Assembly (NCBI RefSeq): GCF_003334255.1 | Contig: NZ_QOWU01000223.1 | Direction: 5' to 3' (one strand) | Length of the DNA stretch: 558 bases | Origin: Escherichia coli | Lineage (GTDB): Bacteria > Pseudomonadota > Gammaproteobacteria > Enterobacterales > Enterobacteriaceae | In this document: positions 1 to 422 of the stretch, one piece after another | Layout of the letters: each line of letters opens with the position of its first letter | How positions within the stretch are numbered: position 1 is the stretch's first letter | The notes under the pieces: generated by a model | What the model saw: only the letters and a program-made list of their open reading frames with translations | The model's database searches: none | Told to the model about the DNA's origin: nothing | Translations under genes and position numbers: made by a program

Positions 1-422
1 GCTGAAGCCATCATTAATGCAACATCATCCTCGCTGACATCCACCACATCTGCAGAAGGTGAAATATCGCCCCCTCCCTCCCCACCGAACCGGACGCCTC
101 CGGCAAGTCCTGCCGCTTTCTGCATCAGCATGTCTTCCTCATCCGGCATCTCCGTCTGCGCTTCCTCTCGCCGGGGAGCCAGCAGACTGAAATCCGAGGG
201 ATGCATATCCGGATCGCAAAAAAACAGGCTGAGTACGGCGTACATCAGCCCGGAAAAATGCATATCCAGTTGGGTATCCTGAAAATAATGCGTGCGGTAA
301 AAATGTCGCCAGTCGGCATATTCGGTGGATGTCATCCCGGCAAGCATGGCGCGCCAGTCAGGCCTCCCCATCTCACGCGCCAGTCTGAGGGCAAAATTCA
401 GCTCGCCGTCGAAAACTTTCCC
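1..422 (-). CDS. T: Phage tail assembly protein T-like domain, made as the -1 frame extension of G (G-T fusion by ribosomal slippage); 3' end lies beyond the left edge
   Basis: The minus-strand frame that is -1 relative to G is open from 431 down to position 1 with no stop (about 140 codons after the slip site). Upstream of 431 it is closed by several stops (plus-strand TCA/TTA at 432, 435, 438, 450, 474), so it cannot be translated independently from further upstream. Hand translation from the slip site: GKVFDGELNFALRLAREMGRPDWRAMLAGMTSTEYADWRHFYRTHYFQDTQLDMHFSGLMYAVLSLFFCDPDMHPSDFSLLAPRREEAQTEMPDEEDMLMQKAAGLAGGVRFGGEGGDISPSADVVDVSEDDVALMMAS... This closely parallels the lambda gpT portion of gpGT as I recall it (REMGRPDWRAMLAGM, DMHFSGL, LSLFF-DPDMHP-DFSLL, MQKAAGLAGGVRFG). 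First in-frame ATG is at 371..369; automated annotation may call an independent T CDS from there. Confidence 0.85.

Follow-up and report, generated by a model that had tools for sequence, protein, structure and literature searches.

The window (the whole stretch of DNA that was analysed, 558 nt in length) represents, with a probability of approximately 0.93, the G/T junction of the tail block (V-G-T-H) of a lambda-type siphovirus, in which T is the C-terminal domain of gpGT. This assignment of T follows from the anatomy of a slippery heptamer, the codon constraint observed in the T frame, the occurrence of Phe at the position of the supposed initiating Met in related phages and the absence of a Shine-Dalgarno (SD) sequence. 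Together with conservation upstream of the ATG at 371..369, these observations support the proposal of the initial annotation that T is translated by frameshifting rather than by internal initiation. According to the proposed mechanism, most ribosomes translating G would stop at the TGA at 400..398 and yield the 143-aa chaperone gpG, while a few percent would slip back by one base on G GGA AAG (422..416), with tRNA-Gly and tRNA-Lys re-pairing on GGG AAA during the slip. The slipped ribosomes would then continue in the -1 frame to produce the 290-aa fusion gpGT, such that the T frame would encode a C-terminal domain with no start of its own, and the ATG at 371..369 would specify an internal methionine.

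In lambda, G_GGA_AAG is the G/GT slip site (PMC3296357 Table 1, PMC7618472), at which a -1 programmed ribosomal frameshift occurs in ~4% of translations, with ~96% remaining in the zero frame (PMC3296357). This shift depends on tRNA-Lys(UUU) being modified, and the gpG:gpGT ratio is known to matter (PMC3296357), with a molar ratio of ~30:1 being described as critical (PMC5009743, PMC4493119). The G part of the lambda protein binds gpH, the tape measure, and the T part binds gpV (PMC5009743), the T function being delivered as a gpGT fusion (PMC5009743, PMC3296357), and neither gpG nor gpGT is found in the lambda virion (PMC5009743, PMC4493119). Assembly of the lambda tail needs the fusion (PMC5009743, PMC4493119), which is made at a constant low level of ~3-4% (PMC3296357, PMC5009743). 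The protein-level case for frameshifting also comes from lambda, from the 1993 work of Levin as conveyed in PMC3296357 and PMC5009743. By extrapolation from lambda, the shift would be expected to occur at a few percent in a PhiR5_1-type phage, in which the G part would bind the tape-measure protein and the T part would recruit the major tail protein.

All features of interest in the window are located on the minus strand, and their coordinates are listed in Table 1. The G-frame translation ends with ...DDDFSAGKFSTAS (in a longer stretch, ...WPADAIARAEEVVLRLSGMSGAVHADTDSTEVAKNNALTDDDFSAGKFSTAS), followed by the TGA stop codon. Three TGA codons in a row close the T (-1) frame three codons ahead of the heptamer, and the frame is open from position 431; its translation reads Y, three stops and FFCGKVFDGELNFALRLAREMGRPDW, or, in a longer form, Y, three stops and FFCGKVFDGELNFALRLAREMGRPDWRAMLAGMTSTEYADW..., and continues past the low end of the window. 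The sequence GGGAAAG is positioned in the X XXY YYZ register of the G frame, seven codons ahead of the G stop. Positions 415..398 overlap with the end of G, while 397..372 (26 nt) are 'intergenic' in current annotation. The TGA triplet, which originates from the Asp-Asp-Asp run of G, limits entry into the T frame to 31 nt, from 431 to the G stop. A dnaX-like SD stimulator, sought 10-14 nt before the heptamer, was not visible in ...CTTACTGATGATGATTTTTCTGC.

Table 1. Features of the G/T junction in the 558-nt window
Feature	Position	Strand	Remark
Gene G, 3' portion (zero-frame tail assembly chaperone)	398..558	-	Translation; runs past the high end of the window
T-frame stop triplet, three consecutive TGA	432..440	-	G frame at this position: GAT GAT GAT = DDD
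Slippery heptamer G GGA AAG	416..422	-	Putative programmed -1 ribosomal frameshift site
T-frame codons 3-17 (VFDGELNFALRLARE)	372..415	-	Would be read only by ribosomes shifted at the heptamer
Proposed internal Met codon ATG of the T domain (LAREMGRPDW)	369..371	-	T start codon in databases
Rest of the T domain (GRPDWRAML...DVALMMAS)	1..368	-	Runs past the low end of the window
Predicted two-tier RNA hairpin	338..408	-	Begins 7 nt past the heptamer; ATG inside

The window shares 100% identity with Escherichia phage PhiR5_1 (PV340545.1, 35651-36208) as well as with prophages of several E. coli chromosomes, e.g. that of strain EC2 (NZ_CP058571.1). Of the 5426 complete E. coli genomes covered, 1926 carried relatives, at 4543 E. 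coli places in all. In both PV340545.1 and NZ_CP058571.1, the gene order is major capsid, FI, FII, Z, U, V, G, T, H (tape measure), M and L, and this neighbourhood is the lambda tail block, with two overlapping ORFs (G and T) between the genes for the major tail protein (V) and the tape-measure protein (H). G is annotated as such in both records. The PhiR5_1 and EC2 loci are identical in the window and are diverged or shifted downstream, a position-wise comparison of 6558 nt giving 2087 mismatches, which could reflect an indel, a frameshift introduced by sequencing or another H allele. The annotation splits H into two CDSs in PhiR5_1 (3582-5915 and 5915-6154) and gives it as a single CDS (3582-6104) in the EC2 prophage. 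Locus positions are related to window positions (w) by 3559 - w.

Comparison with protein families assigned both reading frames to the lambda tail assembly proteins. G is homologous to gpG, with matches, on the full protein, to TIGR01674 (phage_lambda_G, an NCBIfam equivalog; 6e-47, 158.9 bits, cutoff 74.45) and Pfam PF06894 (7.8e-48), while T corresponds to TIGR01715 (phage_lam_T, an NCBIfam equivalog; 4e-60, 200.9 bits, cutoff 77.35) and matches Pfam PF06223 (1e-12). A conceptual frameshift product, obtained by joining G through AAG and then reading the last G again, comprises 290 aa, reads ...DDDFSAGK-VFDGELNFALRLAREMGRPDW... across the junction and aligns end to end with lambda gpGT. Residues 1-138 of this fusion represent TIGR01674 and residues 143-252 represent TIGR01715, and PHROG 32165, a 290-position profile, was matched over 1-290 of 290 (E = 5e-166).

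The motif G(L/I)(A/S)GGVR(F/Y) was observed twice in the T domain, i.e. as AAGLAGGVRFGGEGGG in the window (about 60..110, minus strand) and as AGISGGVRYVPAGW past the low end of the window (PhiR5_1 locus 3540-3601). T proteins of the N15, phi80 and cdtI type, in contrast, finish directly after a single copy of this motif, indicating that lambda-type T possesses a C-terminal extension, which encompasses ~35-45 aa, carries the motif repeat at its end and overlaps the start of H.

Conservation was shown to extend across the entire stretch between the slip site and the Met codon. With GGG taken as codon 1, the ATG represents codon 18 and is preceded by 17 residues (GKVFDGELNFALRLARE), 15 of which are identical to those of lambda (GKVFDGELSFALKLARE), the other two being conservative replacements; the resemblance of this segment to lambda gpGT, which the initial annotation had pointed out, is therefore real. 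At the nucleotide level, the segment differs from lambda at five positions, of which three are synonymous and two conservative (N/S and R/K) in the T frame; two of the five fall within the overlap with G, where they are non-synonymous in the G frame (F/C and A/V). The profile of TIGR01715 begins 11 residues, and that of PHROG 39 six residues, upstream of the Met. Similarly, in phages with only 31-45% identity (HK225, mEp043, N15, phi80, cdtI and Fels-1), the tblastn matches to T already set in at the slip site, with query residue 1 or 2. In an alignment of seven phages, eight of the 17 columns preceding the Met were invariant (G1, K2, E7, F10, L14, A15, R16 and E17), and column 18, the Met position itself, was variable, with M in two phages and F in five.

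The same pattern was observed among 168 related loci drawn from viral contigs and phage records. These loci were retrieved by means of peptide patterns including ARE[FM]GRPD, a selection that partly presupposes the conservation of the three codons immediately ahead of the Met, while codons 3-14 are unaffected by it. With the heptamer taken at a fixed distance of 17 codons upstream of the M/F position, it was present at exactly this distance in all 168 loci with zero indels, as GGGAAAG (84 loci), GGAAAAG (83) or AGAAAAG (1), and with respect to the G frame it kept the X XXY YYZ register in each case. A scan restricted to strict XXXYYYZ had missed the N15-type site G GAA AAG, and in 21 loci a walk-back scan had stopped at an AAATTTG within the T frame that is spurious; both were discarded. 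None of the 168 loci contained a T-frame stop past the heptamer, while 135 of them carried one within 10 codons upstream of it. The Met position was occupied by ATG in 84 loci, comprising all lambda-type loci, and by a Phe codon (TTC or TTT) in the other 84, which represent the N15, phi80, HK225, cdtI and Fels-1 types and in which the first available start codon lies at -15, -10, -7, -6, -4 or +8 codons.

Across these 168 loci, entropies at the first, second and third T-frame codon positions were 0.175, 0.323 and 0.716 for the nine 'intergenic' codons, and 0.267, 0.138 and 0.877 for the 20 codons past the M/F position. The 'intergenic' codons thus vary chiefly at T-frame third positions, following the same pattern as the codons past the Met, and third-position variability begins at the slip site, not at the ATG. 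The conservation upstream of the ATG, for which the initial annotation had recommended a search, is consequently present in the TIGR01715 profile, the tblastn matches, the seven-phage alignment and the 168 loci.

The ATG at 371..369 was also assessed as a possible start signal. From 431 to 372, the T frame contains no ATG, GTG or TTG, which makes this ATG the first start codon in the frame; the position of the ATG 17 codons past the slip site, together with all coordinates and sequence statements of the initial annotation on this point, was found to be correct. The bases ahead of the ATG read ...GACTGGCGCGTGAG. When the 20 bases upstream (CCCTCAGACTGGCGCGTGAG) were paired with the 3' end of 16S rRNA, no usable SD was found, the pairing energy amounting to -2.3 kcal/mol as compared with a locus mean of -3.9 kcal/mol (all positions across 6.5 kb), and 76% of positions equalled or exceeded the score of the ATG. 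Pairing at ten neighbouring gene starts ranged from -3.9 to -10.8 kcal/mol. The earlier statement that no well-spaced SD precedes this ATG is borne out, as the pairing is weaker than the background of the locus. A start codon accompanied by a ribosome-binding site (RBS), with conservation from the start codon onwards, as expected of an independent gene, was not observed, and neither was conservation confined to the region from the ATG on with a genuine RBS, which the initial annotation had named as the outcome that would contradict it. Translation most probably does not initiate at the ATG at 371..369.

Directly past the ATG, an SD-like GGGAGG is present at 368..363 (minus strand), formed by Gly-Arg codons including the rare AGG. 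Its role as an RBS for the next in-frame ATG (347..345) was considered and rejected, as the spacing of 14-15 nt is too long and the motif is not conserved, being replaced by GGGAGA or GGGCGA in close relatives and by GGTCGC in N15; its presence is probably incidental.

Several alternative explanations were weighed against this evidence. T might constitute an independent gene, initiated at the ATG at 371..369 and specifying a free 137-aa gpT, in line with the position of this ATG as the first start codon in the T frame, with its annotation as such in GenBank and RefSeq (the product being present on ~998 contigs) and with the occurrence of ATG in all 84 lambda-type loci, which fits a used start, yet is likewise expected for a conserved residue. 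Such an independent T is considered very improbable in view of the lack of an SD (-2.3 kcal/mol, with 76% of positions equal or better), the location of the ATG within a predicted 8-bp GC-rich stem-loop, the conservation of the 17 upstream codons with T-frame codon constraint, the replacement of Met by Phe in half of the family and the start of NCBI's own T family model 11 residues upstream; moreover, the lambda T function comes as the gpGT fusion (PMC5009743, PMC3296357). Alternatively, both routes may operate in the lambda-type clade, with frameshifting giving rise to gpGT and some reinitiation at the ATG after the G stop supplying a little free T domain. The distance between the G stop (400..398) and the ATG is short (26 nt), the ATG is invariant in lambda-type loci, and bacterial ribosomes that have just terminated are able to start again at a close-by start codon even in the absence of an SD, making reinitiation of this kind possible in principle. 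This dual arrangement is nonetheless judged quite unlikely, as no conservation supports it, the relatives with Phe manage without the ATG, the predicted hairpin would re-form over the ATG, and a free T domain, deprived of its tether to the tape measure (the G part), would have no evident role (PMC5009743).

A G-T fusion could, furthermore, arise through slippage of RNA polymerase, i.e. through an extra or missing base in the mRNA, instead of through ribosomal slippage; the protein would be identical in either case, and a strict distinction between the two mechanisms is not possible from sequence alone. Transcriptional slippage is supported by homopolymer runs of about 7-9, whereas the runs at this junction comprise only G3 and A3 (A4 in N15-type loci) and are far too short. 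Moreover, 168 of 168 loci keep the X XXY YYZ register, which is relevant only to the re-pairing of tRNAs. Polymerase slippage is therefore regarded as barely conceivable, and the lambda GT is treated as a product of ribosomal frameshifting (PMC5009743).

The 86 nt past the heptamer were predicted to fold into a two-tier hairpin (MFE -35.1 kcal/mol, z = -2.0), with an outer stem formed by 408..401 and 345..338 and an inner stem formed by 382..375 and 354..347. Across 47 distinct sequences, 92% of cells were paired and five pairs were changed on both sides, the clearest two-sided change being located in the outer stem (G-C in lambda types versus A-U in N15 types). The covariation score was above those of all 500 shuffles and all slid controls, for a structure derived from one of the sequences compared and with the main covariation essentially representing one event between two clades. 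T-frame third positions exhibited a variability of 0.62 when paired versus 0.99 when unpaired (one-sided p ~0.05, uncorrected for codon degeneracy). The predicted fold is kept in the lambda, N15 and phi80 types and is not kept in cdtI or Fels-1. Both arms of the hairpin encode conserved peptides, LAR and WRA both using GGCGCG, and the hairpin may be only a by-product of these conserved codons. A scan of the window against Rfam at a permissive E-value returned no curated frameshift element, and a sub-threshold match to an lncRNA (19 bits versus a gathering score of 50) was dismissed as chance.

The distance of 7 nt between heptamer and hairpin corresponds to the canonical spacing of a -1 frameshift stimulator. 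Descriptions of the lambda G-T shift usually call for little besides the heptamer. It is a possible, if rather doubtful, proposition that, in phages of the lambda, N15 and phi80 types, a conserved two-tier hairpin at the G/T junction could tune the gpG:gpGT ratio and suppress spurious initiation of free T, the predicted fold being suggestive of a frameshift stimulator or a start-codon mask. Only this hairpin might extend what is already known.

The initial annotation had anticipated that T would be called as an independent CDS from the internal ATG, and this is indeed the case in both records with 100% identical DNA: in PV340545.1 and in RefSeq/PGAP NZ_CP058571.1, the T CDS begins at locus position 3188, i.e. 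window position 371, with no join. The T CDS of LC567838.1 also begins at the equivalent of the ATG at 371..369. The ATG-started 137-aa protein, named 'phage tail assembly protein T', was found on ~998 contigs, and an exact-sequence look-up of the 290-aa fusion in a collection of 15 billion proteins returned no entry. Of the 120 best protein clusters with homology to the T frame, the majority start with MGRPDW..., lambda-type alleles with a GTG right after the heptamer begin with 'MFDGELSFALKLAREMGRPDW', and further beginnings include MKFALKLAREM, MNFVLKLAREM and MLAGM.

None of 12 sampled records contained the ribosomal_slippage join for which the initial annotation had advised inspection (0/12), and the slippery sequence was marked in N15 only, where the CDS is declared 5'-partial. 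T is annotated from the GTG at 10115 in lambda (J02459, NC_001416), HK630 and lambda imm434, and from differing internal ATGs in HK225, phi80, cdtI, Fels-1 and Stx2_95; annotated T starts were thus shown to track whichever start codon is available. Start-to-stop gene callers choose the ATG at 371..369 for no other reason than that the T frame offers no earlier start codon: where lambda has GTG, the window has GTT, so that the call shifts to the ATG, 15 codons further on, at the cost of 17 residues of the domain. Standard gene finders depend on a start and a stop codon within the same frame, and a start may be missing from the second half of a gene that is read by frameshifting (PMC10885494), and gpG/gpGT is listed for manual checking in a phage annotation guide (PMC8785237). 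While the annotation problem is known in general, it is documented here concretely and at scale for this allele.

Two of the sampled records deserve separate mention. In that of lambda imm434 (OM418626.1), the GGG of the heptamer (locus 601-603) is labelled as ribosome_binding_site of T, which is annotated from the GTG next to the heptamer, representing a concrete case of this pitfall in a curated record. In phi80 (JX871397.1, locus 776), the T frame contains no start codon until eight codons past the F position, so that the annotated 'minor tail protein' loses 25 residues of the conserved domain, the most extreme truncation among the sampled records.

The practical value of these findings lies in annotation hygiene, the truncated 137-aa T having spread over ~1000 contigs and RefSeq. 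Anyone employing the database version of T for expression, modelling or searching is working with a protein from which 17 conserved N-terminal residues of the domain are missing, as is the whole G part that tethers the T domain to the tape measure. Thousands of prophage annotations would be fixed by a simple rule that calls for a TIGR01674 match, a TIGR01715 match following it in the -1 frame and, 17 codons before LARE[MF], either G GGA AAG or G GAA AAG.

The biology of G/GT frameshifting is already known, and the window presents no departure from the lambda paradigm. The lambda gpG and its -1 fusion gpGT are said to have been described by Levin, Hendrix and Casjens in 1993 and by Xu, Hendrix and Duda in 2004, 2013 and 2014, and free gpT reportedly went undetected in lambda in the 1993 study. 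Lambda shares with the window the same heptamer G GGA AAG (lambda 10109) in the same register and at the same distance from the G stop, the same internal Met in LAREMGRPDW and the same gene order V-G-T-H, the T segment as a whole being 73% identical (tblastn). Differences from lambda are found in the codon directly past the heptamer, which is GTG in lambda (GGGAAAGTG), where T has historically been started from 10115, and GTT in the window; in the indel-rich C-terminal linker of G, which comprises 143 aa here versus 140 aa in lambda; and in the end of T, which carries four extra residues here.

N15 (gp14/gp15), HK225, phi80, cdtI and Fels-1 encode homologous T domains and have in common with the window the same 17-codon spacing between heptamer and M/F position as well as the GK..E..F...LARE segment. 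Unlike the window, however, these phages employ G GAA AAG as heptamer and carry Phe in place of Met, and their first T-frame start is located elsewhere (-6, +8 etc.), with annotated starts differing accordingly. In tail assembly chaperone frameshifts of other long-tailed phages, two overlapping ORFs are found between the major tail and tape-measure genes, the second being accessed via a -1 shift (PMC4493119, PMC5009743). Among these, TP901-1 (gpG/gpT) also uses GGGAAAG and follows the same logic; sequence similarity is not expected.
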